This document shows, one piece after another, positions 1,709-39,105 of a DNA stretch of 39,105 nt. The notes below the pieces were generated by a model. The model saw nothing but the letters and a program-made list of their open reading frames with translations. It searched no databases and was not told where the DNA came from. The number at the start of each line of letters is the position of its first letter. Position 1 is the first letter of the stretch. Source of the stretch: Bacteroidota bacterium (GTDB taxonomy: Bacteria; Bacteroidota; Ignavibacteria; Kapaibacteriales; UBA961); assembly GCA_052035765.1 (NCBI GenBank), contig JBPOHH010000777.1, positions 1 to 39,105 on the forward strand, given 5' to 3'. The position numbers were made by a program, and so were the translations under genes.

Positions 1709-1906
1709 ACAGCTTTCCTTCGATTAGAATGGATTTTGTCGTAACAGGTTGATACTGAAACGGTTGATAATGAATAATGGTATCGTATGTTCATGCCTGA
1801 TGTTTGATATTTGTGAATCTATCCTTTTTCTTTTCGTTGTATCCTGTCATCCGGAATTTTCGATACGATATAAAGACTCCGGGCTGAATGTTCATTCATA
1901 CATTTG

Positions 1907-4976: not shown

Positions 4977-4996
4977 GTTGTATACTCCTGATTGAG

Positions 4997-5034
4997 AATA
5001 AAAAAGGGCAACTGAGTGAACTCTGTTGCCCTTT
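4997..5034 (-). terminator. rho-independent terminator downstream of the 1040-aa gene
   Basis: The minus strand reads AAGGGCAAC-agagttcactca-GTTGCCCTT followed by TTTTTTATT: a 9-bp GC-containing stem, a 12-nt loop and a U-tract. It lies about 30 nt after the stop of ORF 5062..8184. Confidence 0.75.
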
Positions 5035-5061
5035 AATTTCAAATACTATATTTCCGAGTTA

Positions 5062-8000
5062 TTATCGAACAACCGACAGAACTGAATTTACAGTAAACTC
5101 GCCAGCTACAACTCTTACAGTATACTGACCACTTGGTAAGGTTGTTGTAGTAAATGGAACATCATATCCACCGGCATTTTTATATTCTTGTACCAAGGTT
5201 GCAACTTCAACACCAAGCATGTTATACACTTTAAGAGTAACGAAGCTATTTTGAGGTACAGTATATCGAACATTTGTAGAACCGGTAGCTGGATTTGGAA
5301 CAGCTTCGACTGAGAACCCAGCAACAGCAACATCAGATTTCAATATTTTAACGGATTGAATTTCTGAATTTGAAATTATAACAGTTGTATTTTGATTGTT
5401 AATCACTCCAAGTGTTTTACCTGTAATTGGATCTACAACTGTGTAATTCGATGTTGGATTTTGAATGGATACTTCAACCGGATATTGTACACCTTGGAAT
5501 TTTACGGTTGTAGCATTAGAATTTTCTGCTTTTGCATTATTTCCAAATCTAACATCAAACATTTCTGTCGGAGGAGTTGGAGGTAATTCAAATTGAGAAA
5601 CGTTTGAATTGCTTGGAGCAAAATACAATTCTGATTGATGTTGACCATTATCAACAATACTAAGCTTATCACTTGAATTCACAATGTTTTGTTTCTCAAC
5701 ATTAACTTCATTTTGATTGAATTTGATACCGGCTGCTTTTAATTTTAAATAGCCTTTATCATCTACCTTAATCCAATATCCAAGACCGGGTTGAATTTCA
5801 GATGACTCAACATATCCTCTGTCTGTTTTATATCCCCAGACACTTGTTGGCTTTGTAGTAGGAATTTGAGTACCTGATGGATCGAAGTTGATGTCACTTA
5901 CATTAACAACAGTACTTAAGCTTCCAATTGTGTTCCATCCTTGTGTCAATAGAACAGGATTAATCGATGCGTTAATATTTGAAATTCTTGTTCCTGCAAT
6001 TTTTGTATCAATTACTTTACCGTAACGAACGAAATAGCCGTAACCAACTTCCAAAAATTCTTGATTTTGATATGAATTTGCATAGAATCTGAATGGTTGA
6101 CCACCTTCAGAATTTGGATATACAACAGTGTAGCTTGAATTAGATGGTTTAACCGGGAGGGAAAGTAAATTCCAACCTGTATTTATTACCGGGAATGAAA
6201 CTACTTTCGGTAAAGTATATTCAATGATAAATGAAGTAATACGAGCATCACGGATGGTATAGTATTGACTTGTTGGGCTGCCACCACCTGTTGCATTTCT
6301 CATGTCAACACTAAACTTCGGTCCTACCAAACCATTGATGGTATCTCTCATAAAGAGTTGTGCACCAACTGGGAAATCTTGTGTATCCCAGCTTACGACA
6401 ATCGGATAGTTAGATGCACCATCAGCATTAAATCTACAGAGGAATGATATTGTTGTATCTGTTGAATTATCACGAATATCACGTGACACTGATCTTGTAC
6501 TTACTACGCCTTCTGATTCGATTGGAATTTCGCTATATCCATAAGGAGCTATTTCGTTGCCGAATGCATCTTTAACATTTGTATTAAACCAACGAGCGTA
6601 GAATCCAACCGGTACGTTTCTATAATAATCTTCACCAAACAAGCTATCAGGACCATCTGTTGCTCTATGTCCTGTTCCGAACACAAGATCATTGCTTTCT
6701 CCGCTTGTACCCTTAGAATTCTTCACGTTAATTCTGATACCATAATCTCTTCCTTGTGCAGGGCTAGCGTATGGCTCAAGAGGATTGCGGAAGAAAATAA
6801 AGACTACTTTTAATCTGACAGGGGAAATAACCGCTGAATATGAAGTAAAGGTAATATAGCCAGTGTACACACCTGCATATTCACCATTGCTTCTCAAGTT
6901 ATCTGTATTACAAATAATTCTAAGACCAAGCGGTGCTTGCGCATCTTTAATGTTATTTCTAGAGTCTTTAAGGTTGGGAGGAACTGGTCCATTAATACCG
7001 TTATCAATATAATCAATCATTCCCTCGCGTGTTTTAACACGTGTAGCTGATGGATTATATCCATTCGGTAAACTTCTAAACATTAACCATGGTTCATTTG
7101 ATTGAGCTAAAATATTAGTTAATCGACTTCTTGAAGTAAGATTAATTACCTGAATATCTCGTGTCCCTTCTTTACCGGTATTTGAAGCTGAGTCAACAAC
7201 AATTGGTCTTACAACTTCCCAAAGTGATCCATCAGGAGTGTTATCATCCTGTTTAACTTCATTATTTGTACCACCAATCACATCTCTAAATCCAATTGCA
7301 GGATTTTCACCCATATTCACCCATATAATACCCGGACGACTCGGATAATCTGGAAAAGCATCTGATGTAACTGTTACACCGGCTAAACCAATTGTTGGAT
7401 TATTTTCCAATCTATATAATTTATTTCCGTAAGGATTAGTAGCATCACCTTGTGACACCTTAGGGAATGGATCATCTACACCAACTCTAAAATCTCTGTC
7501 TGCATCTCCATAACGGAGTGAATCATTCGAAATATACAACGGCGTTTTATCTGAGCCGCTATATGTTGTAGACTGATTAACAAGTTGTGACTTTGTAAGA
7601 GTTACTCTGAATTTCAAATACAGCAAAGGTGCAAAAGTACCTGATTGATCTGTTAAAGGTAATCTTCTTGTAGAAGTACCTGTAACCATCATTCTTCTAC
7701 CATATTTAGTTTCAGCATCAGGTGCACCTGTTAAATAGACTCTAAATCTCTTATCATCTGCAACATCATCCCATTCAAAATTGAAACCCTTAGCAAGTGC
7801 GTTTGTATCACCTCTCTGTGGTCCCAAAACCTGAACTCCTGAAGCTTGCATAACACGACCATCATACATCACTATGAAGGAGAAATTATAGATAGGAAAT
7901 CCACCATATCTTTTATCTGTGACCAATTCAGTTTCTGCCCACAGATTTTGAATATAAACGGGTACGACAATTTCCCGCTCTTTGATATCTGAATATCCTA

Positions 8001-8184
8001 ACCATATTCTACCATCCGAATACAAATTATCTAGGTATCCGTTATTCGTACCTGTTAGTGATAATTTTGGTAAATCGGCCTTTTGTAACTGACCAAATAC
8101 TTGACTCGATGGAGATATACCCATCACCATCGCGAACAATATTGCTAGCAATATGTTCTTCCTTTGTAAAAACCACTCTTGCAT
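5062..8184 (-). CDS. large secreted protein, T9SS cargo (1040 aa), N-terminal cohesin-like module, no recognisable catalytic motif
   Basis: ATG start with GGAGAG 6 nt upstream. The signal peptide is MQEWFLQRKNILLAILFAMVMGISPSSQVFGQ. The C-terminal about 85 aa (VPNPATGSTNVRYTVPQNSFVTLKVYNMLGVEVATLVQEYKNAGGYDVPFTTTTLPSGQYTVRVVAGEFTVNSVLSVVR) is a textbook T9SS type-A CTD pattern. Confidence 0.85.
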   Translation of the reverse strand: MQEWFLQRKNILLAILFAMVMGISPSSQVFGQLQKADLPKLSLTGTNNGYLDNLYSDGRIWLGYSDIKEREIVVPVYIQNLWAETELVTDKRYGGFPIYNFSFIVMYDGRVMQASGVQVLGPQRGDTNALAKGFNFEWDDVADDKRFRVYLTGAPDAETKYGRRMMVTGTSTRRLPLTDQSGTFAPLLYLKFRVTLTKSQLVNQSTTYSGSDKTPLYISNDSLRYGDADRDFRVGVDDPFPKVSQGDATNPYGNKLYRLENNPTIGLAGVTVTSDAFPDYPSRPGIIWVNMGENPAIGFRDVIGGTNNEVKQDDNTPDGSLWEVVRPIVVDSASNTGKEGTRDIQVINLTSRSRLTNILAQSNEPWLMFRSLPNGYNPSATRVKTREGMIDYIDNGINGPVPPNLKDSRNNIKDAQAPLGLRIICNTDNLRSNGEYAGVYTGYITFTSYSAVISPVRLKVVFIFFRNPLEPYASPAQGRDYGIRINVKNSKGTSGESNDLVFGTGHRATDGPDSLFGEDYYRNVPVGFYARWFNTNVKDAFGNEIAPYGYSEIPIESEGVVSTRSVSRDIRDNSTDTTISFLCRFNADGASNYPIVVSWDTQDFPVGAQLFMRDTINGLVGPKFSVDMRNATGGGSPTSQYYTIRDARITSFIIEYTLPKVVSFPVINTGWNLLSLPVKPSNSSYTVVYPNSEGGQPFRFYANSYQNQEFLEVGYGYFVRYGKVIDTKIAGTRISNINASINPVLLTQGWNTIGSLSTVVNVSDINFDPSGTQIPTTKPTSVWGYKTDRGYVESSEIQPGLGYWIKVDDKGYLKLKAAGIKFNQNEVNVEKQNIVNSSDKLSIVDNGQHQSELYFAPSNSNVSQFELPPTPPTEMFDVRFGNNAKAENSNATTVKFQGVQYPVEVSIQNPTSNYTVVDPITGKTLGVINNQNTTVIISNSEIQSVKILKSDVAVAGFSVEAVPNPATGSTNVRYTVPQNSFVTLKVYNMLGVEVATLVQEYKNAGGYDVPFTTTTLPSGQYTVRVVAGEFTVNSVLSVVR

Positions 8185-8211
8185 AATGCTCTCCTCTGAA
8201 TAATAAGAAGA

Positions 8212-9447
8212 TTATTTAATATATTTGATTAACTTTTTTGTTTCTTTATTTTGATTTACATGCATTACTTCTAAAATCGAAACTCCGTTGGAGAATAATT
8301 CTTTGGGAACAATTACTGTCTGTTCAAAATATTTTTTGCTCCACTGAACTTCGCCTATTACATTATAAAGTAAAATTTGGGAGATATTTCCCTCTTCACA
8401 AGTAAGAATAAGTGAACCTTCCCACTCATTTATTCTCATAACTTCATTATCACTGTCATCCAGGTTATTCTTTATATTTACACCAACTATTATTCCTTCT
8501 AATTCAACTTGAACACTATCAGTACTTACAGTATTAACGCAATTGCAAGAAGTCAGTTTAATTACATTTACAAAAATCTTAACTGTATCATTATTATACT
8601 TTTTCCTTAGAATCTGTAAGGTAAAAGCTGGCAGATTAACATTTATACTGTCTTTCCAAGAAACACCAATAATCAAGTTATCATTTTTTATATAGCTTGT
8701 ATCTACTGTCAAACCTGTTTGAACTGATTCTATATTTCTAATACTAAGAATATCTTTTTTGTCGATAATTAATGCTAGTTCTACATTCTTAGTTTTTACG
8801 ATATCTTCATTATTCAGATAAATTGCTATTTGCCCAACACTATCTTCTTTTGATAGAGTGACTTTATCTTTTTTAATGGTCGTTTCAAACTTTTTTCCAC
8901 TGTTTTTTGCAATATTTGCTATCAGCAGTAAATTTTTTCCGGCAATGATTGGTGGTAATTTTGAAAAATCATAATAAGCAGGTATAAACTCTATCAAATT
9001 AACAACTGTAGTATCTGAACAATCATTTAAATATCTTCCTGATAAAGCTATTAGTGGTTGTTTTCCCTTAAGAAACTTATTATTTGTAAAGAATGCTCCC
9101 GATATCCACACTTCTCCTGCTACAGTTTTATTCATGGTCAGCACAGCATCTGATCCTGAGTTTTGCAACGGAGCAGATAATGTCCCTGAAGCCAACATTT
9201 GGTCTAGTTGTATCTTTTTCTCATTAAATCCAAGGTATAAATCAAATCCTACGATACTGTCAGCAGCATATATTTCATCTGTCTGTATATATATCTGAAA
9301 TAGTTTATTTCCACATACATCAATATCAGATAATGTTTTTATTTCTACATTCAAAGTACTTTGAGCATGAACCTCTAGTCTGATACTGCTGAGTATTAAA
9401 ATACCCAGCAGTATACAGAATAGATTTTTTTTGTCAAAGTTTCTCAC
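8212..9447 (-). CDS. secreted protein with two cohesin-like modules and a divergent T9SS-type C-terminal tail (411 aa)
   Basis: The GTG start at 9445-9447 directly abuts the TAA stop of the upstream gene (TAAGTG), which suggests translational coupling. The signal peptide is RNFDKKNLFCILLGILILSSIRLEVHAQ. Cohesin-like pattern: LFQIYIQTDEIYAADSIVGFDLYLGFNEKKIQLDQMLASG...AGEVWISGAFF...GKQPLIALSGRY. C-terminus: ILLYNVIGEVQWSKKYFEQTVIVPKELFSNGVSILEVMHV. The gene is very AT-rich and the protein is rich in K, N and I. Confidence 0.7.
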   Translation of the reverse strand: MRNFDKKNLFCILLGILILSSIRLEVHAQSTLNVEIKTLSDIDVCGNKLFQIYIQTDEIYAADSIVGFDLYLGFNEKKIQLDQMLASGTLSAPLQNSGSDAVLTMNKTVAGEVWISGAFFTNNKFLKGKQPLIALSGRYLNDCSDTTVVNLIEFIPAYYDFSKLPPIIAGKNLLLIANIAKNSGKKFETTIKKDKVTLSKEDSVGQIAIYLNNEDIVKTKNVELALIIDKKDILSIRNIESVQTGLTVDTSYIKNDNLIIGVSWKDSINVNLPAFTLQILRKKYNNDTVKIFVNVIKLTSCNCVNTVSTDSVQVELEGIIVGVNIKNNLDDSDNEVMRINEWEGSLILTCEEGNISQILLYNVIGEVQWSKKYFEQTVIVPKELFSNGVSILEVMHVNQNKETKKLIKYIK

Positions 9448-18300: not shown

Positions 18301-19503
18301 ATCCACTAATTGGCGACGTGAATCCGAATTAGAAACCGCCGGCTCCGCAACAGCTCTATCCAACTCACTCAATGATATTACATTCTGATCTATCGTACTA
18401 CCATCACTTTCGGTCAATGCAGGATTTTTATCTTGAAACACTTGTCTAGATATGTTCAAACCAGTAGTATCTGGATACACCCCTGCTCCTCGTGGAGCTT
18501 GCAACAGCTGCAATGCACCAGCACGGTATCTTGCAATATTATTCGTGAACGTACAGTTCAACAACCATGTTCTTTCAGAAAAACTTGTTAATGCTCCACC
18601 AGCTCCATTGGTCAACTTATTCATCTCATCATTCAATTGAAGAATTGAAGACTGTGCTGCCAACGCCACACCGGCTGTATCATACAAAAACTTCTTATCA
18701 ACTGTAGTGTCTTTTCTGAAATCCTTAAAATCTACGTCTCTAAAGAATGCGGCTCTCGCTCCCGGCATCACTATAATATGCCCCCATTCACGAGAATAAT
18801 CGTTGATTGGCTGACCTCTAAAGACAATTCTTCTCGTGGCATTGTTTACTGGAATATTTGGTGTAACACCAAACAACCTTCTCCAAGGCTGGAAACGAAT
18901 AATGTCATCTGTAGACCACAATCTTGCCGAAGAAAACATAATCGCTCTCATTGGCGAAATCACTATCTTACCTGTTGACGGAACAGGCAAACTTGCACCA
19001 CTTTGCAAGTTTTCCAATCTTTTTGTAACAGTATCAAGCACTACATTGAAAATGTAATTGTATTTCCCGTAGTTACTCGGACTGCTAAAGTTACCAGGAT
19101 AACTTAGTGTACCCTGAATTGTAGCTTCGTTATAATTAGTTTCCTGCACTACTGATGAACTGAGAAAATATCTCATATCATTATACTCCAGCAAACCAAT
19201 CGAAGTTGGCGATGTACCGTTATAAGCAGCACTCAGCCGACTATCAGCTATAATGCGACCGCCCACGGAATCAATCAACCGACCATTATCGAAGAAAATG
19301 ACCTCTGTCCCCGGCTCAATGATCAGTGTCCCAGCTACAGTGTATGTACCACTTATTTGATACACACTATCCTGTAAAAATATCCGCACCTCATTAGGGG
19401 CTATTCGTCCTGCAACCTGCACACGAGGTTTTTGCGCAAACCCCGTACTTATACATAGGGCGAACGCAATGATTAGAGTGCTTAAACGAAACCAACGTTG
19501 CAT
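12340..19503 (-). CDS. giant secreted beta-helix adhesin-like protein (2387 aa): Pmp-type repeats, cadherin-like/He_PIG-like Ig region, shared ELPPxPP module, T9SS CTD
   Basis: ATG start with GGAGG 4 nt upstream. The signal peptide is MQRWFRLSTLIIAFALCISTGFAQ. There are about 10 GGA(I/L/V/M) motifs alternating with FxxN motifs. KWLKINPVSGLLYGTPG (nt ~13713-13766) matches the 'putative Ig' / dystroglycan-type cadherin-like pattern. The CTD is SPNPFNNSTSVVMGVPTSSNVNVEVYDAMGAKVATLANNFYNAGRYELTWNAKSEQGTDLAAGVYFVKMTAGAFSTTQRLMLVK. Confidence 0.9.
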   Translation of the reverse strand: MQRWFRLSTLIIAFALCISTGFAQKPRVQVAGRIAPNEVRIFLQDSVYQISGTYTVAGTLIIEPGTEVIFFDNGRLIDSVGGRIIADSRLSAAYNGTSPTSIGLLEYNDMRYFLSSSVVQETNYNEATIQGTLSYPGNFSSPSNYGKYNYIFNVVLDTVTKRLENLQSGASLPVPSTGKIVISPMRAIMFSSARLWSTDDIIRFQPWRRLFGVTPNIPVNNATRRIVFRGQPINDYSREWGHIIVMPGARAAFFRDVDFKDFRKDTTVDKKFLYDTAGVALAAQSSILQLNDEMNKLTNGAGGALTSFSERTWLLNCTFTNNIARYRAGALQLLQAPRGAGVYPDTTGLNISRQVFQDKNPALTESDGSTIDQNVISLSELDRAVAEPAVSNSDSRRQLVDDARLAVYHGRVRQLTFDNNRALLSDVDTLRINGNRVVTDTNRVAVLRSRSWNNEAFGGAMLIAGRELDENRKIEIGLGVNDSIRTAAGPFGFVSFGSKDFITFTNNYALNRQSSPNSRGAKGGALYIGKYTSLVINGSFRNNFTETPYQINSNSEQYSLGGAVFHENTLGRLQLRGHPSLATEFLNNRAGSGGAVYCDGNSDPRPSPIIGGSDVTNPRIRDYGRRMSFENNTAIAHGGAIYTKRNLTVYGAGGFINDLPLAQAYGTGFSVRFANNSAGYTGGAIAVHLPSIEPPVPIEQRYIRLVRAEFKDNTVGQLAPSASLEIVKQVAGGGAIYSKNGDLNVIKGVEFNNNRAFNSNGGAIAMVHPRTSSRRFFISDADALTLLPNGTAIGYTSNDSLYDNRRKTVVAADVRSLTRFYNNVAEPNPDSRLQGSGTTQMSANSIDIKRFHPGFLRDVLGNGLRENGVGLGGAIFILDSITPQRRFRADSIFLNRVRIQNNTAYTGSAVYSDNYDLKIVLTRCLVTSNKSTSPVGRTQDVIGGPMVGSDNPASSDLAGATFYGEIIGPIPWTSFNIAANSIYDNDARFIIRLPDAPNSKSVLSGGTGIGFGGVDTLRGNYWGRTEGNVSTIIKTSQPVPSPNGGVQETFFIQGNGKTHMQFLRTGRTDDTQQGPFEQNGFPGYVYTAIQIGKIPDTLLMAGRIYDFFDKGTDMKTADYSFRRMSPIEDFAVGIPPKLQRYTNATKASNNKYVRRLTRDPFSTDSLNYATGQENVLWRQLRRLQTEFAPDYRTGELSHPIGYPLFLEARAKYQGEDIYQNNDDPTTPNSSTFFVINDSTGDYIRINMSQFTDMQTLNNDGVYPKEILRGRVDFVLDSVERTGTSARVRRTYEGLYNFGGTETLLPRLADSAFNEDISAFGGRRYELSMSPALNKRGVLYGNGQAVVYSNRPSMPASLASGNDTIVSYFAGERWNSLPVRPGDYVRVISRTVLWRDGVDTAIDKGLGFRIGTSTPPPVFTGNKIALENPKVSPQYFSSYKNKIYLSEDEKYNKAPNPNVRTRDSIFVITAIDSNLMYDPRWAMDIDAAGNIRQQDTIFKRYNQLELSWYPLYVGQFGDTIRDVNSNKLTALRRWIKADTLWPTRGVPNTRALNAPYYGARGVIELKGQPSNPYVVPGGEWMEVVAKNYAPTVRTVDALKGIALKPADSAFITDTLSKFIYLYPSYFHAQRYDDTLLSAPRNARFLNQDTLNFGLTDSSVYRFMIIVTDSFPVFSRIERPSANCQLGTQSLLVANVTDKLRFYVDINTDDEKEDSIAANNEGWDFKYGKTSYGFLSKSLRNVPGDTAIDELYQLRPNWMADRYMYVEGSDTTQDVFANDFTSRGVMNIRIPRAQALNLLKPGSVADQANGGLNTDTIITLVANDGHTGLSYLTRRVFVNISPTITTTTLENAKEDMDYNVDLLNRPRKIAYSDPNFGQAQNFRLLYANDPDTTIAKDPCFKEAGEWDVRDIKKTPKWLKINPVSGLLYGTPGVKDAPHTSALGNPDTVTVVLTDAGGLTDVKVLILNTDSTNHAPKLLAAPVVRCIGQGDTYLDTLLAQDLDLFREKPVWDNSSKFDPILETIKLTVISPAGTNLVIEPATITGTKSDTLQKVVIKSNGPLTINAADIKDGKVTIKVQITDDEITKILEYKLNVSEATDFIVPVTVANNDVRGAFQVLYFGTAKNATTGEKTGEIGKLDSNYCEYELPPVPPRDVFDARWTIALTNGIIRNIFPQAVPKDNNQAIYKARFQAGFLGGNGNSAYPVTITWDRSDVPSRTDATKNPSGASWWIADNISNGQFFKYNMNTGIGRNSATIVDYSATGSKSTVRVNKDDIDGFIITYDFTSDVEEQPVTGMPVSFELSEASPNPFNNSTSVVMGVPTSSNVNVEVYDAMGAKVATLANNFYNAGRYELTWNAKSEQGTDLAAGVYFVKMTAGAFSTTQRLMLVK
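16770..18610 (-). repeat. array of Pmp-type (GGAI / FxxN) parallel beta-helix repeats within the giant CDS
   Basis: GGA motifs: GGALTSF, GGAMLIAG, GGALYIGK, GGAVFHEN, GGAVYCDG, GGAIYTKR, GGAIAVHL, GGAIYSKN, GGAIAMVH, GGAIFILD. These are interleaved with FTNNIA, FDNNRA, FTNNYA, FRNNFT, FLNNRA, FENNTA, FANNSA, FKDNTV, FNNNRA, FYNNVA and IQNNTA. Confidence 0.75.
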
Positions 19504-20645: not shown

Positions 20646-22784
20646 TTAATACTTCAACACCTTTTTTACGCTCTCAATGATATCGTTTTGGTTGAGTAAA
20701 ATTGCACTTTCTAATGATTTTGCAAATCCTACCGGTGTATCTTTCGAGCAAACCCGACCAACGGGCGCATCTAAATATTTAAACATTTCATCACTAATCG
20801 TTGCTGCAATTTCACCCCCAAGGCCGCCTGTTTTATAATGTTCATGAGCTACGACCACTCGACCTGTTTTTTCAACAGATTTAAAGACTGTTTTATGGTC
20901 CCATGGGGCAAGTGACCTCAAATCAATCACCTCACATGATACACCTTCTTTTGCCAATTCTTCAGCAGCACGCAAAGAAATGTGTATAGCATTTCCGTAA
21001 CTAACGAGTGTAACATCTGTCCCTGATCTGCGGATTTTTGCCTTCCCAAACGGAATAATAAAATCTTCCCCGGGTTCTGATGCTGATGTAGGCCTGTAAT
21101 TATAAAGGAATTTAGGTTCAAGGTACATTGTAACCCCTTTTGATCTGATTGCATTTCTCATCAACCCAATCGCATCATCAGCAAATGCAGGGCACACCAC
21201 TCTTACACCCGGTATATGAGAGAAGACCGCATCTAAATTCTGAGAGTGATATAATCCACCTTGTATGTACCCTCCACTTGCCAGTCGTATAACAATGTTT
21301 GGCGAGAATTGCCCTTTAGTTCTCCAATAATCGTGCGAGCACTCAATGAACTGTTCCATTGCCGGCCAAAAATAATCAGCAAACTCAGCACCCTCAATAA
21401 CCACTCTAATATCATCACGATAACGTGAAAAACCGTTTGCCGATCCCACAATATAATCTTCGGCAATAGGAGCATTGAAAATTCTGTCGTTCCCAAATTC
21501 ATCAAGTAATCCCTTGGGTACATTGAATATTCCCTGCTTCTTAACAGAGGCTACGTCTTGTCCCCATAAAAATGTATTTGGATTACGCTTGAATTCTTGC
21601 ACCATCGCTAAGTTTATGCCTTCACGAAAGGTCAGTTGGGGTGCACTTGGATCATTGACGTAACGAGACTCTGTATCATCGTCGTAGCCAACAACTGATT
21701 CTGGTATGAGATAGGTTGTATATGACTCAGGGGAAGGATCTGGCGATGGTTCTACCTTGTCTGCTGCTTCAAATATGAGTCGCTGATTTTGTGCTTCTAG
21801 TTCTTGGATTTGTTCTTCGGTCAGTAGTTTTTTCTCAAGTAGTACTTCTCTAAATCGTGCCAGAGGATCTCTTGTTTTCATTTCTTCTATAACCTCTTTC
21901 GAACGATATAGTTCATGATTATCAGAGTTTGAATGGGAGCCTATTCTATCACAATCAGCATGTACCATGGCTGCACCTTCACCACTGAGTATATACTCAC
22001 GTGCCTGAGCCAAGGCGCGGAACGAATCAAATGGATCACGGCCATCACAATTGATAATCTTTAAATTCTTAAATCCTGTAAAATTATCAGAAATCTGAGT
22101 ATTCGCAGTCTGCTCTTCCACCGGCACTGAAATACCATATTTATTATTCTGAATCACAAATATAACCGGTAATTTTTCGCGAGAAGCTCCATTGACTGCT
22201 TCATAAAAATATCCTTCGGAACATGCCGATTCTCCTCCGGAGTATATCGCAATTTCATCCCCTTTGTACTTCTTAATAGCGCGTGCAGTCCCAGCTGCAT
22301 GCTGACTATGGTTACCTGTACAAGAGGAGCCGTTTTGAATCCGTACAGACGGCTTAGCAAAGTGATTGCTCATGTGACGACCTCCGCCTGCTACATCTGC
22401 ATCTTTACTTAATCCATTAAGGATAATCTCTTCTACGGTGAGTCCGGCAGAAAGACAGGTCATTAAATCCCTGTAATACGGAAAGAGAAAATCTTTTCCT
22501 GATCGAAATATCTGACCAACCGCTAGCTGTATACCATCATGCCCGGCAAATGGAGCATGGTATGACCATCCTTTTGCCATCTTGAGATATAACGCAGCCT
22601 TTTCATCGAGCCGTCTTCCTAAGTGCATAAGTTTATACCATGCTACAATAGTATCATTATCGAATCCGGACGTGTCGAATTTACTGTATGGGGCCTTTTT
22701 CGAATCATGTGCTGGTACCTTGCTTTTCGATATTGTCTTGTTTGACTGGTTGTTTTTGGGTTGTTTTTGTATCTTCGCTGGCAT
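20646..22784 (-). CDS. 2-oxoacid (branched-chain alpha-keto acid type) dehydrogenase E1 component, fused alpha/beta subunits, ThDP-dependent
   Basis: 712 aa. The N-terminal half is E1-alpha-like (GHDGIQLAVG, GGGRHMSNHF, IAIYSGGESACSEGYFYEAVNGAS...VIFVIQNNKYGISV). The C-terminal half is E1-beta/transketolase-like (GQDV...GIFNV...GNDRIFNAPIAEDYIVGSANG, EPKFLY, transketolase C-terminal region). Confidence 0.85.
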   Translation of the reverse strand: MPAKIQKQPKNNQSNKTISKSKVPAHDSKKAPYSKFDTSGFDNDTIVAWYKLMHLGRRLDEKAALYLKMAKGWSYHAPFAGHDGIQLAVGQIFRSGKDFLFPYYRDLMTCLSAGLTVEEIILNGLSKDADVAGGGRHMSNHFAKPSVRIQNGSSCTGNHSQHAAGTARAIKKYKGDEIAIYSGGESACSEGYFYEAVNGASREKLPVIFVIQNNKYGISVPVEEQTANTQISDNFTGFKNLKIINCDGRDPFDSFRALAQAREYILSGEGAAMVHADCDRIGSHSNSDNHELYRSKEVIEEMKTRDPLARFREVLLEKKLLTEEQIQELEAQNQRLIFEAADKVEPSPDPSPESYTTYLIPESVVGYDDDTESRYVNDPSAPQLTFREGINLAMVQEFKRNPNTFLWGQDVASVKKQGIFNVPKGLLDEFGNDRIFNAPIAEDYIVGSANGFSRYRDDIRVVIEGAEFADYFWPAMEQFIECSHDYWRTKGQFSPNIVIRLASGGYIQGGLYHSQNLDAVFSHIPGVRVVCPAFADDAIGLMRNAIRSKGVTMYLEPKFLYNYRPTSASEPGEDFIIPFGKAKIRRSGTDVTLVSYGNAIHISLRAAEELAKEGVSCEVIDLRSLAPWDHKTVFKSVEKTGRVVVAHEHYKTGGLGGEIAATISDEMFKYLDAPVGRVCSKDTPVGFAKSLESAILLNQNDIIESVKKVLKY

Positions 22785-25384: not shown

Positions 25385-25671
25385 GTGGTAGTACTATCGT
25401 ATGTTTTAACCTTAACTTCGTGCAAATTTAACAAAATCCTTCCACCTAATTTTCTCTTGTATCCTTGACGCATCTTTTCGAGCACCCTATTTTTATTTTT
25501 TATCTGTCTAACAATTTGCTTAATGCGTTATTACAATGTATTTTTGCGCAAAATTCTTGCACCAGACCGATTTTTCCGGCCAATCCTTATTATTTTAATT
25601 TATGTGCCGCTTATCGGACTCGGCTCAACCGAAAATGTTTGTTTTTTTATTAATTTTAAAGAGGTTTACTT

Positions 25672-25911
25672 ATGTTTTGGACACCTGAATTAGCGTATGC
25701 TCTCGAGGATGCCCCTTGGCCGGCAACAAAAGAAGAACTCATCGATTATGCGAACCGTACCGGAGCCCATCAACAAGTGATTGATAATTTGGCTGAGCTT
25801 GAAGACAATGACGAGCTGTACGAAGGTATGGAAGATTTGTGGCCAGAATATGAAAACGCCACTGATGACCTTTACTTTAATGATGATGAAGAAGAAGAAA
25901 ACATGTACTGA
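25672..25911 (+). CDS. small DUF2795-like protein with strongly acidic C-terminal tail
   Basis: 79 aa. ATG preceded by AGAGG. LEDAPWPATKEELIDYANRTGAHQQVIDNLAEL fits the DUF2795 pattern (fPa.K.eLi..A...ga...v...l..l). The tail is DDLYFNDDEEEENMY. A clean terminator follows. Confidence 0.65.
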   Translation: MFWTPELAYALEDAPWPATKEELIDYANRTGAHQQVIDNLAELEDNDELYEGMEDLWPEYENATDDLYFNDDEEEENMY

Positions 25912-25944
25912 TTTTTATTCCAACTTTAGTACATTGATTTTTTA

Positions 25945-25979
25945 AGCCCAAGCTCTTTATTTGCTTGGGCTGTTTTTTT
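25945..25979 (+). terminator. rho-independent terminator after the DUF2795 gene
   Basis: AGCCCAAGC-tctttattt-GCTTGGGCT followed by GTTTTTTT. Confidence 0.8.
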
Positions 25980-25992
25980 CAGAGGGAACACA

Positions 25993-29062: not shown

Positions 29063-30421
29063 ATGAACTTTGATGATACCATTTGTGCACTTGCTACACC
29101 TCCGGGTATTTCCGGCCTTGCCGTAATTCGTCTTTCCGGCAAAGATGCCTTTCGAATTGCTGATTTGTGTTTTAAAGGAAAATCCCCTCTATCTTCTGCT
29201 TCATCCCATACAATATTCTATGGAAAGTTTTTTGATAACGATCTTTTTTTAGATACTGTTACATCTTCTGTGTTCCGTGCCCCACACTCATATACAGGAG
29301 AGGATACCGTCGAGATTGGTTGTCATGGCGGGTTAGTTGTCTCCGAAGAAATTACCAACGCTCTCTTACGCCATGGTGCACGCTTTGCTGACCCGGGGGA
29401 ATTCACCAAACGTGCTTTTCTCAACGGCAAGATGGATCTTACTCAGGTAGAAGCTGTTGCTGATTTGATCCACGCCGTTTCATCTAAAGGTTCTCATATC
29501 GCTGCACGACAACTCATCGGAGGGTTTACTACTACTATACACAAGCTTAGATCCGACCTTCTTAATGTGTGCGCATTGCTGGAACTAGAACTTGACTTTT
29601 CAGGCGAAGATGTAGAATTTGTTGACAAAACCCATCTTTTATCCCTCATTGACAGTACGCTAGCTACTTGCCAACTTCTAGCCGATTCTACCGCTTCCAC
29701 CATTCTTCGCAATGGATTTCAGGTGGGACTAGCCGGCTACCCGAACGCAGGTAAGTCTACGTTTTTCAACGCTTTACTCAACAAAAAACGTTCAATTGTA
29801 AGCCCAATAGCCGGTACAACCCGAGACTACATTCATGATACATTCACTCTTGGTGGTATTACGATTTCCCTCTATGACACTGCCGGCCTACGCAATGATT
29901 CTCAAGATAGTATCGAACTTGAAGGAATAGCTCTTACTCACAGTCTTCTCGATTCTAGCAATTTAATTCTAGTTATTAACGATCTTACACAAGGAGAATA
30001 TCATTCTCAACGGTTGCTTGAAAGCCTTCTTTCTCGTTATCCTACAACACCAATATGTTTAGTACAAAATAAACTAGATCAAGTTTCTATTCCAATATCT
30101 GCAAATATAGTTGATGTTTTTGCAATTTCAGCTTTAGATGGCTTAGGTATTCACAACATTAAAGCGTACATAGAGAACATAGCAACACAAAGTACAGACA
30201 GAGCTACCGATATGTTGTTAAATCAACGCCACTCTTCATTACTCTCAGCTATTATACAATTCTTACACAACGCACAATCATCCCTTACTACCGGTATGCC
30301 TAATGAATTTATAGCACTCGACATACGACACGCCATCACAAAGCTTGGAGAAATCACAGGTGAAGTACTTAACGAGGAAATACTCAACACTATCTTTTCA
30401 AAGTTTTGCATCGGAAAGTGA
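29063..30421 (+). CDS. mnmE: tRNA uridine-5-carboxymethylaminomethyl(34) synthesis GTPase
   Basis: 452 aa. Motifs: DTICALATPPGISGLAVIRLSG, YTGEDTVEIGCHGG, G1 GYPNAGKSTFFNALL, DTAG, NKLD and the C-terminal FCIGK. Confidence 0.95.
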   Translation: MNFDDTICALATPPGISGLAVIRLSGKDAFRIADLCFKGKSPLSSASSHTIFYGKFFDNDLFLDTVTSSVFRAPHSYTGEDTVEIGCHGGLVVSEEITNALLRHGARFADPGEFTKRAFLNGKMDLTQVEAVADLIHAVSSKGSHIAARQLIGGFTTTIHKLRSDLLNVCALLELELDFSGEDVEFVDKTHLLSLIDSTLATCQLLADSTASTILRNGFQVGLAGYPNAGKSTFFNALLNKKRSIVSPIAGTTRDYIHDTFTLGGITISLYDTAGLRNDSQDSIELEGIALTHSLLDSSNLILVINDLTQGEYHSQRLLESLLSRYPTTPICLVQNKLDQVSIPISANIVDVFAISALDGLGIHNIKAYIENIATQSTDRATDMLLNQRHSSLLSAIIQFLHNAQSSLTTGMPNEFIALDIRHAITKLGEITGEVLNEEILNTIFSKFCIGK

Positions 30422-30543: not shown

Positions 30544-32391
30544 ATGACATATTATGATGTAATAGTTGTTGGTGGTGGCCACGCAGGTATTGAAGCAAGT
30601 GTGGCAGCGGCGAAGATGGGATGCACAACAGCCCTGATATCCATGGACACAAAAACCATAGGCAGGTTATCGTGTAATCCTTCCATAGGCGGCAGCGCTA
30701 AGGGGCATCTTGCTAAAGAGATAGATGCACTGGGCGGTGTTATGGGGGTACTTGCTGATAAAAGCGGCCTCCAGTTCAAACTGCTAAACACATCGAAAGG
30801 TCCGGCTGTTTGGTCTAGCAGAACACAAAACGACAAAGATCTGTACCCTTTATTCGCCCAGCAGATGGTATTGCAGACAAAGAATCTTACCGTTCTTAAC
30901 GCGAGTATTACAGATATAGCAATAAAGAACGGCAGAGTTCATGGTGTCATTACCGAGAGCGGCGAAAACATACATGCAAAATGTGTCGTACTGTGCTCAG
31001 GAACTTTCCTAAACGGGGTTATGTACACAGGAATGAATGGTATTTCAGGCGGTAGGGTTGGTGAAAAAGCTTCGACAGGAATATCGGGTAATCTACACAA
31101 TTCCGGCTTTAAAACCGGGCGCCTTAAAACAGGCACACCGCCTCGCATAGATCGTTACTCGGTTAATTATGAAAAACTAACTGCGTTTGGTGGTGATGAC
31201 ACCCCAAGCCCATTCTCATTCAGAACATTTAAAGTTAAGAACGTTCAGACATGTCACACCACAGCAACTTCTGAAAAAACACACGACATACTACGATCTG
31301 GATTTGCACAATCCCCTATGTTCACAGGAACCATCTCGGGAAAAGGACCTCGATACTGCCCCTCTATTGAAGATAAAATCGACAGATTCAGCGACAAGAC
31401 ATCACATCAAATAGTGTTAGAAAGAGAAGGATTAAACACCAATTCTGTATATGTCAACGGTTTCTCTACAAGTCTACCCAAAGACACCCAAAAAACAGGA
31501 CTACAATCTATATCCGGTTTGGAAAACGCATCAATATTAAAATATGGATATGCTGTCGAATACGATTATTTCTTTCCAAACCAACTTAAACCTACGTTAG
31601 AGACCAAGAATGTTGAAGGTTTGTTTTTTGCCGGACAAATAAATGGAACTTCCGGCTACGAAGAAGCGGGCGCACAAGGAATCGTCGCGGGAATAAACGC
31701 GGCGTTGCGCTGTAAAGAAGCACCACCTTTTACTTTGGACAGGTCGCAGGCTTATATCGGCGTGATGATTGATGATTTAATTAACAAAGAGTCCGAAGAA
31801 CCGTACAGAATATTCACCTCCCTGGCAGAATACAGATTATTACTCCGCCAAGACAATGCATACGAGAGATTAAGTGGTTTTGGGTATCAATTCGGTCTCC
31901 TCTCCCCCTCAGAATACCAAACTATTGCTCATCGAGAACTCCTCGTAAAAAAAATCATAGAATACAGCAAAAAGACCGTTATCAAACCAAAAGAAATTAA
32001 TCCCTTTTTACTCGAAAACGCTGAGGCAGAAATACAATCTTCTACCTCCTTAGACGCACTGGCAAAAAGAAAGAACATGACACTGGCAAAACTGCTGTCA
32101 CATACACAAACTATTCCTGCATTTCTAACTTCAACAGCTTTACTTGAACGATCTGAGATATTCATCAAGTACGAAGGATATATTGAGCGACAGTTAGCAG
32201 AAGTTGAAATGTTCAAACAAAACGAAGAAAAAAGGATTCCCGAGAACCTGAATTACACAATGATAAAATCACTATCCGCAGAATCCAGGGAAAAACTTAT
32301 AAAAATCCGCCCTGCATCGCTCGGCCAAGCTTCAAGAATTGCAGGCGTTTCTTCGACGGATTTAGCTGTATTAGCTCTCTACTTACGGTAA
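30544..32391 (+). CDS. mnmG: tRNA uridine 5-carboxymethylaminomethyl modification enzyme (FAD-dependent)
   Basis: 615 aa. Motifs: [25 protein letters not shown]-like [64 protein letters not shown], plus the C-terminal GidA-associated domain. Confidence 0.95.
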
Positions 32392-34849: not shown

Positions 34850-35311
34850 TCAGTTGTTTTTGCTAGAATCCGAATCACTCGGCAATAAGCGCAAAAATAC
34901 GCGATATGACTTCTGAGAATCCGGCGTGTTCGTCCGGATGGTGTAATCAATACGTTGTAAAGAATCGGACAGATTCTTGGTGTTTACCGATAATCGAATA
35001 GTTCCTTTGCTAAACGGAACTATGTAGGAATGAATAATCGCAGCATTTGCACAATAACACGATCCGCGCATTCCGTAAATTTCTAGGGGCTGTCCTCCAC
35101 GATTAAGTATCGTAATGTCTTTGATGATAAAATCACCCTGCTTGAAATCCAAGTGGAGCTCCGATGGAACTACTTCTATTTCAGGAGGATAAAGTGTGTC
35201 TGCAACAATTCCATTGCCAAGGCGATCGTAATATCTACTGCGTGCGGGAAACACACAAAGGAGAACTACAAGCAGTAAAAATGCACCGGAAAATGATAGT
35301 TTCTTATTCAT
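34850..35311 (-). CDS. DUF1573-like secreted protein
   Basis: 153 aa. The signal peptide is MNKKLSFSGAFLLLVVLLCVF. FIIKDITILNRGGQPLEIYGMRGSCYCANA fits the DUF1573 pattern (f.f.N.G..pL.I..v..sC.C). Confidence 0.65.
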   Translation of the reverse strand: MNKKLSFSGAFLLLVVLLCVFPARSRYYDRLGNGIVADTLYPPEIEVVPSELHLDFKQGDFIIKDITILNRGGQPLEIYGMRGSCYCANAAIIHSYIVPFSKGTIRLSVNTKNLSDSLQRIDYTIRTNTPDSQKSYRVFLRLLPSDSDSSKNN

Positions 35312-35316
35312 GTATT

Positions 35317-36078
35317 CTATGCTAATGAACGGGTTACAATAATATTTTCAAATTGATCTGCAAAATCAAATAGTCCTTGTTTCTTCCATATCCACTCTGC
35401 GGCAACCAACGCTCCTGAGGCAAACCCACTTCTATTCTTCGCTCTGTGCGTGAGCTCAATTGTATCGGCGACAGAATCCACGTAAACACTATGCGTTCCT
35501 GTCACTTCCCCACCGCGAACAGATGAGATATGGAGAACCTCCGGTGATATTTTACCATGAGATGTGTCCGTATAAAGGGTTGATTTTCTATCTACTTCCG
35601 CTACTATAATATCACCGAGCGAAAGCGCAGTACCACTCGGACTGTCGAGCTTACGCTTATGGTGGATCTCCTGCATGAAAATATCGTACTCCTGTGATGA
35701 ATTGACAAGGCGCGCCGCCTGACGCACAATCCTAAAAAACATTTGCATGCCGATGGAGTAATTAGAGCCGTAAATAACGCCAATAGAATGTTTTTCAACG
35801 AGTTGCTTGATCACAGGCAAATGCTCCAGCCATCCTGTTGTGCCTATAACAACGTTTTTTCGAAGCTCACACGCAGATTGAATCGTAGAAAGAACTGCAT
35901 GCGGTGTCGAAAAATCTATCACCACATCAAAATCAGAAGGTGAGGAAGGGTTCAATGGCGTTTGTTCATCAAAAACACGCGTGATGTGAATCCCCTGCTC
36001 ACCGGCGATACGGGATATTTCTTTGCCCATCGAACCGTTTCCGACGAGAGCTATTCTTGGTGTTGAGTTGATATTCAT
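35317..36078 (-). CDS. dapB: 4-hydroxy-tetrahydrodipicolinate reductase
   Basis: 253 aa. Motifs: IALVGNGSMGKEI, VVIDFSTPHA, VIGTTGW, SNYSIGM, EIHHKRKLDSPSGTA, VRGGEVTGTHSV, ELTHRAKNRSGFASGA. Confidence 0.9.
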   Translation of the reverse strand: MNINSTPRIALVGNGSMGKEISRIAGEQGIHITRVFDEQTPLNPSSPSDFDVVIDFSTPHAVLSTIQSACELRKNVVIGTTGWLEHLPVIKQLVEKHSIGVIYGSNYSIGMQMFFRIVRQAARLVNSSQEYDIFMQEIHHKRKLDSPSGTALSLGDIIVAEVDRKSTLYTDTSHGKISPEVLHISSVRGGEVTGTHSVYVDSVADTIELTHRAKNRSGFASGALVAAEWIWKKQGLFDFADQFENIIVTRSLA

Positions 36079-36093
36079 GGAGTTACTGTAGGA

Positions 36094-36780
36094 TTACTGT
36101 ATCGGTTTTGATGCAAATGATATTGACTTTTTGATCTTTCCGTTGTGGAGTTCGAGACGAGCTGCTTTTGGAAAACACGCTATTAACTCATTGCTGTGAG
36201 TGGATATTATTACTGTAGTTCCCTTCTCTGCTTGTTTTTGGAGCGAGGCAGCGACTATACTCGTGGACTCAGCGTCTAAATTGCCGGTGGGCTCATCAGC
36301 GATAACAAACTCAGGCTTGTGGACAATTGCCCGGGCAAGAGCAGCTAAATGCTTTTCACCGCCGGAAAGCTGATGGGAAAACTTATCACGTAAATGACTA
36401 ATCCCAATATCTGCAAGTACTTCCAGACATCTATTATCCATTTCTTTTTTTGAATACTCTGTCACGACGAGTGGCATCATCACATTTTCATACACTGTCA
36501 TTCCGTTGAGAAGCTTGCAATCCTGAAATATAATGCCTATCTTGCGACGCAACGCATGCTTTTGGCTGCGTTTCATGATAGAAGTGTTCTGACCATTTAA
36601 AAACACAGACCCTTGCGCGGGCATCAAGTCCGCGTACAATAGCCGCAGAAAAGTCGTCTTCCCCGCGCCGGTCACGCCTATCATGAGCGTCGTCTGCCCC
36701 TCCGGTAATATACAGTTAATATTGGAGAGCGCCGGCATAACATCAAAATTTACGGATACTCCGCGTAGCTCAATATGCAT
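36094..36780 (-). CDS. ABC transporter ATP-binding protein, FtsE-like, with atypical signature motif
   Basis: I moved the start to the ATG at 36778-36780 ([12 protein letters not shown]...), because the track's start at 36822 would overlap the divergent anmK. Motifs: Walker [13 protein letters not shown]-loop IIFQD, signature [14 protein letters not shown], Walker [14 protein letters not shown]-loop STHS. No ftsX or permease gene is adjacent. Confidence 0.75.
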
Positions 36781-36803
36781 ATTTTTCAAATAGATATAAT
36801 ACA

Positions 36804-37976
36804 ATGAACAGTATAAATTCAAACTGGTTTGCAGCTCCGCGCATCCTCTGCGGACTCATGTCGGGCACCTCACTCGACGGGATTGATGTCGCAATCGCAG
36901 AGTTTACAACAGACGCTCAAGGCGTTCATTTTAAAGTAATTACCCATCAGACCATTCCATATTCAGATGAAATAAGATCTGAAATAGTACGATGCATCGA
37001 GAAAAAAATAACCATCTCCGATGTAAGCTTTCTTACCGTCGCGCTTGCAGAATATCATGCTCACGCCGTTCGAACTGCCTGTGCCTCTTGCTCCATTCCA
37101 CCGGAGCAGCTCGACGGAATCGGCTTCCATGGTCAGACGGTATGGCATGCACCAAAGCCATCAAAAAAACTCGAAACATTGCTTGGAAACACACTCCAAC
37201 TATCGTCAGGACAAACACTTGCTGCATTATTAAATACTACGGTCGTGAGCGATTTCCGTTCGGCTGATATCGCACTCGGCGGTCAGGGCGCCCCACTTGT
37301 CCCGATGTTCGACGAAGCGTTCCTGCGGGATTCATCACGCAATGTCATCGCGCTCAATATCGGAGGAATTGCAAATATAACACTCTTACCTGCCTCAAAA
37401 AGCGAGCCGATACGTGCATTCGATACCGGACCGGGGAATGTCTTAATCGATGCATCGACGAAAATGTTCTTCGGAAAAAACTACGACGCCAATGGCGCTA
37501 TTGCCGAGGCAGGTCGCACGATACGCCCGATGATTGCGCAATTAAAAGAACATAAATTCATTTCTCAAAAACCACCTAAATCCACAGGACGTGAAGTATT
37601 TAACGCATCATGGCTCGACAAGCGGCTCCGTACAACATTTCAACCGTCTATTCCTTCTGAAGATGTCGTGCGCACAATTACCGAGTTTACGGCATGGTCA
37701 ATTGCCGAAAATATCCGCCTTTTTGCCGATCCATCCTCCAAAATCATCGCTTCGGGTGGTGGAATTCACAACAAAACACTCATGCAACTGCTTCGCGATG
37801 AACTACCTGCCGCTGAAATCTGCACAACCAACGATATCGGTATCGACTCCGATGCGAAAGAAGCACTTTGCTTTGCCTACCTTGCCTATCGTACCCTTGG
37901 CGGGCTTCCGGGAAATATCCCCTCCGTTACCGGTGCGAGCCGCGAAGCCATTTTAGGAGCAATATCCCGTGGGTAA
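36804..37976 (+). CDS. anmK: anhydro-N-acetylmuramic acid kinase
   Basis: 390 aa. Motifs: GLMSGTSLDGIDVAIA, GFHGQTVWH, SDFRSADIALGGQGAPLVP, LNIGGIANI, FDTGPGNVLID, SGGGIHN. Confidence 0.9.
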   Translation: MNSINSNWFAAPRILCGLMSGTSLDGIDVAIAEFTTDAQGVHFKVITHQTIPYSDEIRSEIVRCIEKKITISDVSFLTVALAEYHAHAVRTACASCSIPPEQLDGIGFHGQTVWHAPKPSKKLETLLGNTLQLSSGQTLAALLNTTVVSDFRSADIALGGQGAPLVPMFDEAFLRDSSRNVIALNIGGIANITLLPASKSEPIRAFDTGPGNVLIDASTKMFFGKNYDANGAIAEAGRTIRPMIAQLKEHKFISQKPPKSTGREVFNASWLDKRLRTTFQPSIPSEDVVRTITEFTAWSIAENIRLFADPSSKIIASGGGIHNKTLMQLLRDELPAAEICTTNDIGIDSDAKEALCFAYLAYRTLGGLPGNIPSVTGASREAILGAISRG

Positions 37977-38022
37977 ATATTGTAATACATTAATAAAAAA
38001 CAGGTTATGTCGGAATTCTGTG

Positions 38023-38253
38023 TTTTCCACAGCTTTATCCACTTCTCCCCATTTTTTGCGTGGAAATCAACGATTTCGTGGTGAATACTTCCGTAGAATC
38101 GTGTATAAAACTTTCTTTATCCACACCTCGGTTGAAAACTGCACGCTTTTCAACAAAGATATCCACAGGTATCGAGACTACCGTTGAAATGCTAAATTAC
38201 TACAAAATATTCGCTTATTTCCACTTATCCACCAAGTTTTCCACATTTCCACA
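38023..38253 (+). other. cluster of same-orientation DnaA boxes (candidate oriC or DnaA-titration locus) in a convergent-gene spacer
   Basis: Boxes compared with the consensus TTATCCACA: TTTTCCACA 38023-31, TTATCCACT 38035-43, TTATCCACA 38117-25 (perfect), ATATCCACA 38159-67, TTATCCACC 38225-33, TTTTCCACA 38237-45, ATTTCCACA 38245-53. AT-rich tracts lie at 37977-38001 and ~38255-38302. Confidence 0.6.
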
Positions 38254-38334
38254 TACTAATTCAACTCTTACATTAAGAAATTTTAAACTTTATATAAGAT
38301 AGTGAAGATTGGAGAGGAAATGAATCAATGGTTT

Positions 38335-38973
38335 TTACTGTTTTTCGAAAATGGGTTTCATGGGTAATCGAGCATCGCAGACCAGCAAAAGCGACCCTTC
38401 ATGGATATTGATACGGACCTCATCACATATCGCCTGATTGCGCGCTCCTTCCCGCGCACCGAGACGAAGCCATTCATTGGTGAGAGGCCATTGGAGACCA
38501 TAGGTCGTCAGGCGTACTGCCGGCTGCGGAATAAGGGAGATGATTTCTTGAGGAAAAGCATTGAACGCTGCTGATTGATGAATGGAAAATATGTATCTCA
38601 TTGATTCATATATACATAGATTCATATTTAACGAAAAACGCATAAAAACACTCCAATTGTTGAGTGAATGCTCGAGCATACCGCCATGGAAGCCGCAGAT
38701 AAGCACTGAATGAAAACCGGCGTTTTGACAATGAACCAGGCATTTTTCAAAATCGTTGGTTTCCTGATCAGGAATACATACTATCCGTGAATGAGGAAAA
38801 TCTATATCCTCGGCGTGAGAATGGAAACTGTCGAGATCGCCAATAATCACGCTAGGCGTAATCCCCAAACGACGTAATTGAAGTGCAGCACCATCGGCAG
38901 CAATGATAGGAATTGATGAAAACTGTGTGTAAAAATCTGAATCGGAAGGCAGAACACCATCAAGGCAAAGCAA
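38335..38973 (-). CDS. thiamine pyrophosphokinase (thiamine diphosphokinase)
   Basis: 212 aa. Motifs: IIAADGAALQLRRLGITPSVIIGDLDSF, PDQETNDFEKCL, ICGFHGGMLEHSLNN. The start is a TTG at 38971-38973. No ATG, GTG or TTG lies further upstream before the in-frame stop at 39082-39084. Confidence 0.75.
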   Translation of the reverse strand: MLCLDGVLPSDSDFYTQFSSIPIIAADGAALQLRRLGITPSVIIGDLDSFHSHAEDIDFPHSRIVCIPDQETNDFEKCLVHCQNAGFHSVLICGFHGGMLEHSLNNWSVFMRFSLNMNLCIYESMRYIFSIHQSAAFNAFPQEIISLIPQPAVRLTTYGLQWPLTNEWLRLGAREGARNQAICDEVRINIHEGSLLLVCDARLPMKPIFEKQ

Positions 38974-39105
38974 AGCGTCGAATCCTGACGGAGAAAATGA
39001 AAGTCGAGAAAAGGGGGTCTTAAAATGAAGGTCGATCGAACGTAGAAAGGAATTTCTCCCGGTGTTTTGTTGGTATTTATCCTATGTATATCGGGGATTT
39101 TGAAG

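Follow-up and report, generated by a model that had tools for sequence, protein, structure and literature searches.

Does the noncoding spacer between anmK and the thiamine pyrophosphokinase (TPK) gene hold the chromosomal origin of replication of this bacterium, at a distance from dnaA? A sequence-only reading of the window, by which we mean the whole 39,105-nucleotide stretch of DNA analysed here, had drawn attention to a group of DnaA boxes in this spacer and had left the choice between a dnaA-unlinked origin and a datA/DARS-like site. Our analysis supports an origin, through the conservation of the boxes, a switch in GC skew and the lack of a competing box cluster, and we consider it likely that this spacer serves as the chromosomal oriC, unlinked to dnaA, in a bacterium of the Candidatus Kapaibacterium lineage. 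The locus combines a conserved box array with an AT-rich element that is conserved, unstable and correctly oriented, and the GC skew changes sign at the same place (Table 1).

The candidate oriC (37977-38334) comprises 358 bp of noncoding DNA with a G+C content of 33.5%, enclosed by the converging anmK and TPK genes. Since just 21 bp (28272/28294) and 8 bp (34841/34850) separate the other convergent gene pairs of the window, the spacer is unusually long, and, as anmK and the TPK gene both terminate there, no promoter is required in it. ORF and Pfam analysis agreed with the sequence-only reading on the unusual length of this spacer between two 3' ends, and Pfam likewise on the presence of mnmE and mnmG nearby. 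Every gene from 1.9 to 25.4 kb is carried by the minus strand and is thus directed away from the cluster; that the two immediate neighbours converge on the spacer instead of diverging from it counts against an origin. The TPK open reading frame (ORF) has no ATG start; its earliest start codon, TTG at 38973, lies 17 codons downstream of an in-frame stop, and gene callers assign the protein a length of 228-231 aa in relatives.

A search of the spacer against Rfam returned no matching family, even at E <= 1, and on this basis an RNA gene in the spacer was ruled out. A scan for promoters and terminators showed no excess of matches in the spacer, and a tRNA search found none there, the sole tRNA of the window being at 20.4 kb. 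An 80-aa ORF (38060-38302) was rejected as a gene; it has no Pfam match, and its frame is closed in two of the relatives described below (L002 and L003). We also rejected a sigma-70-like promoter in the AT-rich block: the scan found none there, and the spacing would be overly long and changes with indels.

Elsewhere in the window, four consecutive minus-strand ORFs of 283, 1040, 958 and 2387 aa (4191-19503) carry type IX secretion system (T9SS) C-terminal sorting domains, and the 2387-aa ORF additionally has Chlamydia-PMP repeats. A 411-aa ORF with no Pfam match (8212-9447) lies among them, and the G+C content of the region (0.30-0.39) is mostly under the window mean of 0.396. A single 712-aa ORF (20646-22784) combines E1 dehydrogenase, transketolase pyrimidine-binding and C-terminal domains and looks like a fused alpha-beta 2-oxoacid dehydrogenase E1. 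The first stretch of the window (1-1900) has no ORF of at least 100 aa, only ORFs of 94 and 89 aa, and gave no Pfam or Rfam match. Gene orientation switches at a 609-bp divergent spacer (25385-25992) between gatB on the minus strand and an Omp85/BamA-like gene on the plus strand; as this spacer contains no DnaA boxes, it is not a competing origin candidate.

In the anmK-TPK spacer, a recount of matches to the DnaA box TTATCCACA yielded six sites with at most one mismatch, all on the plus strand in 38023-38245 and one of them perfect (38117), which together with a seventh site with two mismatches occupy 231 bp (38023-38253), just as the sequence-only reading had described. The six sites make up 6/16 of all sites of this quality in the 39-kb window. 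The earlier estimate of about 8 sites expected by chance in the window proved too low: we computed 12.9 (sd 3.0), or about 13, compared with the 16 observed, and the window overall is not enriched. Clustering was assessed with shuffled sequences, and the 6 sites per 250 bp compare with a maximum of 3 in 300 shuffles of the window; composition-matched shuffles of the spacer averaged 0.13 sites and never contained more than 3. The six boxes, which span 223 bp, are therefore clustered well beyond chance.

Table 1. Features of the candidate origin and its surroundings, in window coordinates; cumulative skew minima are included for the window and the relatives.
Feature	Position	Strand	Description or basis
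mnmE	29063-30421		Pfam
mnmG	30544-32391		Pfam; 5.6 kb from cluster
anmK	36804-37976	+	Pfam PF03702, E = 3e-111; stop codon borders spacer
F1	38023-38031	+	TTTTCCACA, <=1 mismatch; tandem module 1
F2	38035-38043	+	TTATCCACT, <=1 mismatch; 3 bp after F1, tandem module 1
Further 2-mismatch sites to TTATCCACA	38043; 38147; 38100	+; +; -	Box search
R1	38059-38067	-	Weak; ATTTCCACG on - strand, CGTGGAAAT on + strand; GTGGA.A invariant in 7 sequences
R2	38080-38088	-	Weak; GTATTCACC on - strand; 21 bp from R1; GTGAA.A invariant in 7 sequences
R3	38100-38108	-	TTATACACG on - strand, 2 mismatches; 20 bp from R2; GTG.A.AA invariant
F3	38117-38125	+	Perfect TTATCCACA; TCCACA invariant in 7 sequences
R4	38130-38138	-	Weak; TTTTCAACC on - strand; left arm of inverted repeat
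F3'	38147-38155	+	Weak; TTTTCAACA; right arm of inverted repeat; tandem module 2
F4	38159-38167	+	ATATCCACA, <=1 mismatch; 3 bp after F3', tandem module 2 (38147-38167)
DUE-proximal box block F5-F8	38217-38253	+	Box search, repeat analysis
F5	38217	+	ATTTCCACT; retained in close relatives only
F6	38225	+	TTATCCACC, <=1 mismatch; tandem module 3
F7	38237	+	TTTTCCACA, <=1 mismatch; 3 bp after F6, tandem module 3
F8	38245-38253	+	ATTTCCACA, 2 mismatches
AT-rich stretch, candidate DNA unwinding element (DUE)	38253-38302		Duplex stability and conservation
Possible DnaA-trio array CTA ATT CAA CTC TTA	38256-38270	+	3'-GAT-5' type trios on - strand
Palindromic TCTTACATTAAGA	38266-38278		Within AT-rich element
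AAGATA block	38296-38301		Within AT-rich element
TPK gene	38335-38973	-	Pfam PF04263 and PF04265; stop codon borders spacer
Cumulative skew minimum, window	38271		Inside spacer
Cumulative skew minimum, L001 and L181			Inside spacer
Cumulative skew minimum, L002			2.6 kb from spacer centre
Cumulative skew minimum, L004			1.5 kb from spacer centre
Cumulative skew minimum, L003 and L005			Elsewhere within these short loci, not at cluster

In total, the array holds 8-9 forward sites and 4 reverse box-like sites. A box-3 bp-box module is repeated three times within it (F1/F2, F3'/F4 and F6/F7) and forms one repeat family. In an alignment of seven sequences (the window, the relatives L001-L005 and the metagenome contig L181), the TCCAC cores of the first module (38023-38043) are invariant and F6-F8 are kept throughout, with a perfect box at the F7 or F8 position in L002-L005. 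The statement that all boxes point in one direction stands for the six sites with at most one mismatch, all of which are on the plus strand, but fails for the array as a whole, which includes conserved weak reverse boxes; the cores of R1-R4 are all conserved.

An inverted repeat, GTTGAAAA-N8-TTTTCAAC at 38131-38154, had been put forward as an 8-bp hairpin. The repeat is present and corresponds to R4 and F3', the latter reading TTATCAACA in L003. Among the relatives, the left arm occurs as GTTGAAAA, GTTGATAA or GTTAATAA; each arm switches among TTTTCAAC, TTATCAAC and TTATTAAC without regard to the other, and their complementarity goes down to 6/8 in L002, L004 and L005. As no T run follows it, the inverted repeat is not a terminator. 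The reading as a structural hairpin was rejected on account of the 6/8 pairing, the independence of the arms and the position of the right arm within a box-3 bp-box module, and, judging from the alignment, we read the "hairpin" as two inverted weak DnaA boxes.

We then compared the locus with its relatives. The T9SS sorting domains, together with the nearest AnmK relatives, assign the window to the Candidatus Kapaibacterium (Kapabacteria) lineage. AnmK shares 87% identity with the window's protein in L001, 84% in L002 and 66-67% in L003-L005, and the 4.1-kb oriC-proximal segment of L181 matches the window at about 80% identity. L001-L005 and L181 share the gene order to the left and to the right, with flanking proteins 49-95% identical: to the left it runs (gatB) - bamA-like - BPL - mnmE - mnmG - BadF-type ATPase - DUF6588 - DUF1573 - dapB - ABC - anmK, and to the right TPK - peptidase M3 - transketolase N/C. 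In all six, the best DnaA-box cluster is found in the same anmK-TPK spacer with the same box positions, and perfect TTATCCACA copies occur in each of the seven aligned sequences. The conservation of box positions in related genomes, a check that the sequence-only reading had suggested, was thus evident in six related genomes or contigs. Box positions are invariant in 66 of 97 columns, compared with 56 of 261 other spacer positions (Fisher p = 5e-16, 7 sequences), and the invariant columns outside the boxes are mostly in the inverted repeat and the AT-rich block. Aligned with L002 and L003, the spacer reached z values of 40-43, compared with -1 to 14 for the other intergenic spacers of the block.

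At shorter distances, strain L203 (Logan SRR30163051) is 98.95% identical to the window over 35295-39105, with 40 substitutions over 3.8 kb; the three that fall in the spacer are all in the box-free stretch 38173-38186. Same-species contigs, 99-99.8% identical, came from activated-sludge and other public assemblies. An exact-sequence look-up of dapB found short contigs of the same species only, and the same look-up of the window's TPK and AnmK proteins gave no matches. When metagenomes were scanned with the conserved DUE motif TCTTACATWAAGAWAWTTT, 119 of the 120 matches listed were due to chance and L181 was the sole true relative. AnmK relatives of at most 48% identity (L006-L010 and L016) have neither the synteny nor the cluster and are therefore uninformative, and the more distant homologues P0011 and P0019 also showed no synteny and no cluster.

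Beside the box array, AT-rich tracts are present on both flanks, as the sequence-only reading had described; of the two, the right one (38253-38302) alone shows conservation and unusual instability. Among 30- and 50-bp duplexes it has the lowest stability in the spacer and the third- to fourth-lowest in the 39-kb window (99.9th percentile). It includes sequence blocks invariant in the seven sequences and is placed directly 3' of F8, on the side toward which the TTATCCACA-oriented proximal boxes point. The left tract (37977-38001) is not conserved in relatives and was for this reason rejected as a second DUE. The invariant motifs in the AT block of the seven-sequence alignment are AAGATA and TCTTACAT.AAGA, the latter being palindromic in the window; neither is a DnaA box or can be matched to a factor, and they might be the site of some origin-binding protein. 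A 12-mer, TACATTAA[T/G]AAA, occurs at both edges of the array (37986-37997 and 38269-38280); as its left copy is unconserved in relatives, the pair is probably a matter of chance.

A possible DnaA-trio array begins 2 bp past F8 and 10 bp past F7, with no GC-rich spacer before it. A basal unwinding system (BUS) comprises tandem boxes separated by no more than 3 bp, a distance of 10-13 bp between the better box and the trios, a first trio that is preferably 3'-GAT-5', and at least three NAN trios (PMC8287927). Like the BUS of Bacillus subtilis oriC (PMC8287927), the locus has boxes 3 bp apart, about 10 bp between the better box and the first trio, a first trio-like triplet of the preferred 3'-GAT-5' kind, and an AT-rich region beyond. 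Among five distinct sequence variants (listed as window/L181/L001, L002, L003 and L004/L005), trios 1, 4 and 5 have an invariant middle T, and at trios 2 and 3 a middle T is found in three of the five. Under the published rule of at least three consecutive 3'-NAN-5' trios within 16 bp of a box with at most two mismatches (PMC8287927), a qualifying run occurs in the window (F7, 7 bp, ATA CTA ATT) and in L002-L005; the base rate of the rule is 39% for boxes elsewhere in the window. In contrast to the B. subtilis BUS, the run is broken (2+2) in L181 and L001, the closest relatives of the window. Given the base rate, the trio-like array is weak support for an origin.

In addition, we examined GC skew across the locus. 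The skew is negative in all 1-kb bins from 1 to ~31 kb and close to zero between 30 and 38 kb; averaged over the 38 kb left of the cluster, it is -0.11. The window stops 770 bp past the spacer; the right-side skew was taken from relatives, and the resulting composite covers ~58 kb and not the whole replicon. To the right, the skew is +0.03 to +0.10 over 9-10 kb in the five relatives L001-L005, and in the contig of L002 extended to +20 kb (L208) the cumulative skew climbs overall. In three of the seven loci the cumulative minimum lies within the spacer, and in two more it is no further than 2.6 kb away. Because of the flat interval at 30-38 kb, the position of the switch can be read from skew alone to no better than ~8 kb. 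The cumulative skew falls and then rises, and genes are directed away from the cluster, a combination that marks origins, not termini. The skew check proposed in the sequence-only reading therefore came out in favour of an origin, the sign change coinciding with the cluster over the limited range of the composite, and its companion, the search for a stronger cluster elsewhere, revealed no second box cluster in the window or to +20 kb in the contig of L002.

The absence of dnaA from the window, also stated beforehand, held up in searches with Pfam and in tblastn with E. coli DnaA. Bac_DnaA and DnaN domains were found in no ORF of the window and nowhere in the right flank of the relatives, and tblastn gave no match in the window or in any relative's locus examined. 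dnaA and dnaN are thus absent within -38 kb (window) and +10 to +20 kb (relatives), a point against an origin here, and a rightward extension via the GWxTD protein of the L002 genome reached +20 kb with no dnaA. Many bacteria have their oriC away from dnaA, in gene surroundings that are conserved within groups, and because adjacency to dnaA/dnaN is usual but not obligatory, the distance from dnaA is not disqualifying (PMC4285127). The closest lineage for which we found a published oriC prediction is Melioribacter roseus (Ignavibacteria, the sister class), whose predicted origin is the 303-bp dnaA-dnaN spacer (PMC3534657); the genome paper of Ignavibacterium album makes no reference to a replication origin, oriC or dnaA. 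With the Melioribacter origin predicted at dnaA-dnaN, it follows that the present clade has relocated either the origin or dnaA, or else has a second cluster at dnaA, and there may be such a cluster, possibly a stronger one, in the same lineage.

Like the predicted origin of M. roseus, which is ~300 bp long, the candidate is continuous and was called from GC-skew transitions and DnaA boxes (PMC3534657); unlike it, the candidate is set in an anmK-TPK context, with neither dnaA nor dnaN between -38 kb and +20 kb. It also differs from B. subtilis oriC in not being located between dnaA and dnaN. The oriC of E. coli, between mnmG/gidA and mioC, resembles the locus in being unlinked to dnaA with mnmG nearby, and in having strong and weak sites in both orientations (PMC4285127). 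When E. coli oriC is read with its R1 box as TTATCCACA, R1 is followed by a 10-bp gap, ATC CTA ATA and then the 13-mers, and the locus has the same order, with TTATCCACA-oriented tandem boxes, CTA ATT CAA CTC TTA and the AT-rich block. In contrast to E. coli, the locus lacks GATC-rich 13-mers, the gap that separates box from DUE is not GC-rich, and its strong boxes are unidirectional, whereas R1 and R4 of E. coli face each other. Furthermore, mnmG is 5.6 kb away and not adjacent, and the flanking genes are convergent.

E. coli also offers the model for the main alternative, as its datA locus, an IHF-dependent conserved box cluster away from dnaA, serves in DnaA titration and in DnaA-ATP hydrolysis. 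A titration or recycling locus of this datA/DARS type would bind DnaA and regulate initiation but would not fire, and the true oriC would be elsewhere, for example by dnaA. A conserved box cluster on its own resembles E. coli datA, and such a reading is also compatible with the lack of a nearby dnaA, with skew data that span only ~58 kb, and with the predicted position of the Melioribacter origin at dnaA-dnaN in the sister class (PMC3534657). Were the origin located beyond 10-20 kb on the right or beyond 38 kb on the left, however, the skew would keep its sign across the cluster, and the sign changes. Moreover, a titration site needs no unwinding element, whereas here a conserved and exceptionally unstable AT element is located 3' of tandem boxes in the geometry of unwinding, and the number of sites, 8-9 forward and 4 reverse, is origin-like. 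With a conserved DUE-like element adjacent to the boxes and a location at the GC-skew switch, the locus differs from E. coli datA on both counts, and we regard a pure titration function as unlikely.

We judge it distinctly improbable that the spacer is a binding array for another factor, or a cis-regulatory or small-RNA region of the flanking genes, in which the repeats merely resemble DnaA boxes. The conserved palindrome TCTTACATTAAGA and the AAGATA block, which are not DnaA boxes, would suit this reading, as would the finding that some other intergenic spacers can likewise be aligned between relatives. Nevertheless, the conserved units match the canonical TTATCCACA, with perfect copies in the window, L001-L005 and L181; anmK and the TPK gene both end at the spacer, which makes a promoter unnecessary; the spacer showed no Rfam match, no excess of promoters or terminators and no conserved ORF; and the indels between conserved blocks argue against a structured RNA. 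An origin that belongs to an integrated plasmid or mobile element and uses DnaA boxes is harder still to credit, and we assign it almost no weight. In its favour, L001 and L002 have a gene for a XerC/D-type tyrosine recombinase ~8 kb to the right (L001 19386-20282 and L208 12767-13663, 6-8 kb right of the cluster); no such gene was found in L003-L005. Housekeeping synteny (gatB, bamA-like, mnmE, mnmG, dapB and anmK on one side, TPK, peptidase M3 and transketolase on the other) is present in all relatives, and the ORFs of the window are without replication-initiator, partition or transfer domains, both of which speak against a mobile element.

For a chromosomal oriC, we draw on the analogy of characterised origins for a provisional scheme of DnaA binding, unwinding at 38253-38302 and origin firing. 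DnaA would fill the strong forward boxes, namely the three box-3 bp-box modules and the perfect F3, and would oligomerise over the weaker forward and reverse sites. From the tandem boxes F6-F8, which point to the AT-rich element, it would spread onto 38253-38302 and open it, and the replicative helicase would then be loaded at the opened stretch.

We lean towards the view that, in the Ignavibacteria/Kapabacteria branch of the Bacteroidota, the origin and dnaA became unlinked, so that this Kapaibacterium clade would fire from the anmK-TPK spacer and Melioribacter from dnaA-dnaN; that the layout is an unusual one, with three box-3 bp-box modules all directed toward one DUE, three weak reverse boxes phased at 20-21 bp and a fourth 30 bp further; and that the palindrome TCTTACATTAAGA in the DUE is the site of an unknown origin-binding regulator.

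Taken together, the element would be an ordinary kind of origin that would not surprise a replication specialist, and it leaves knowledge of how origins work unchanged. What the locus does provide is a concrete, conserved and well-formed candidate for the origin in a lineage of uncultured bacteria common in activated sludge. As such, it offers an anchor for estimating growth rates from metagenomic coverage (peak-to-trough ratio), enables replichore-aware analysis of these MAGs, and gives a basis for comparing how origins move away from dnaA within one phylum.
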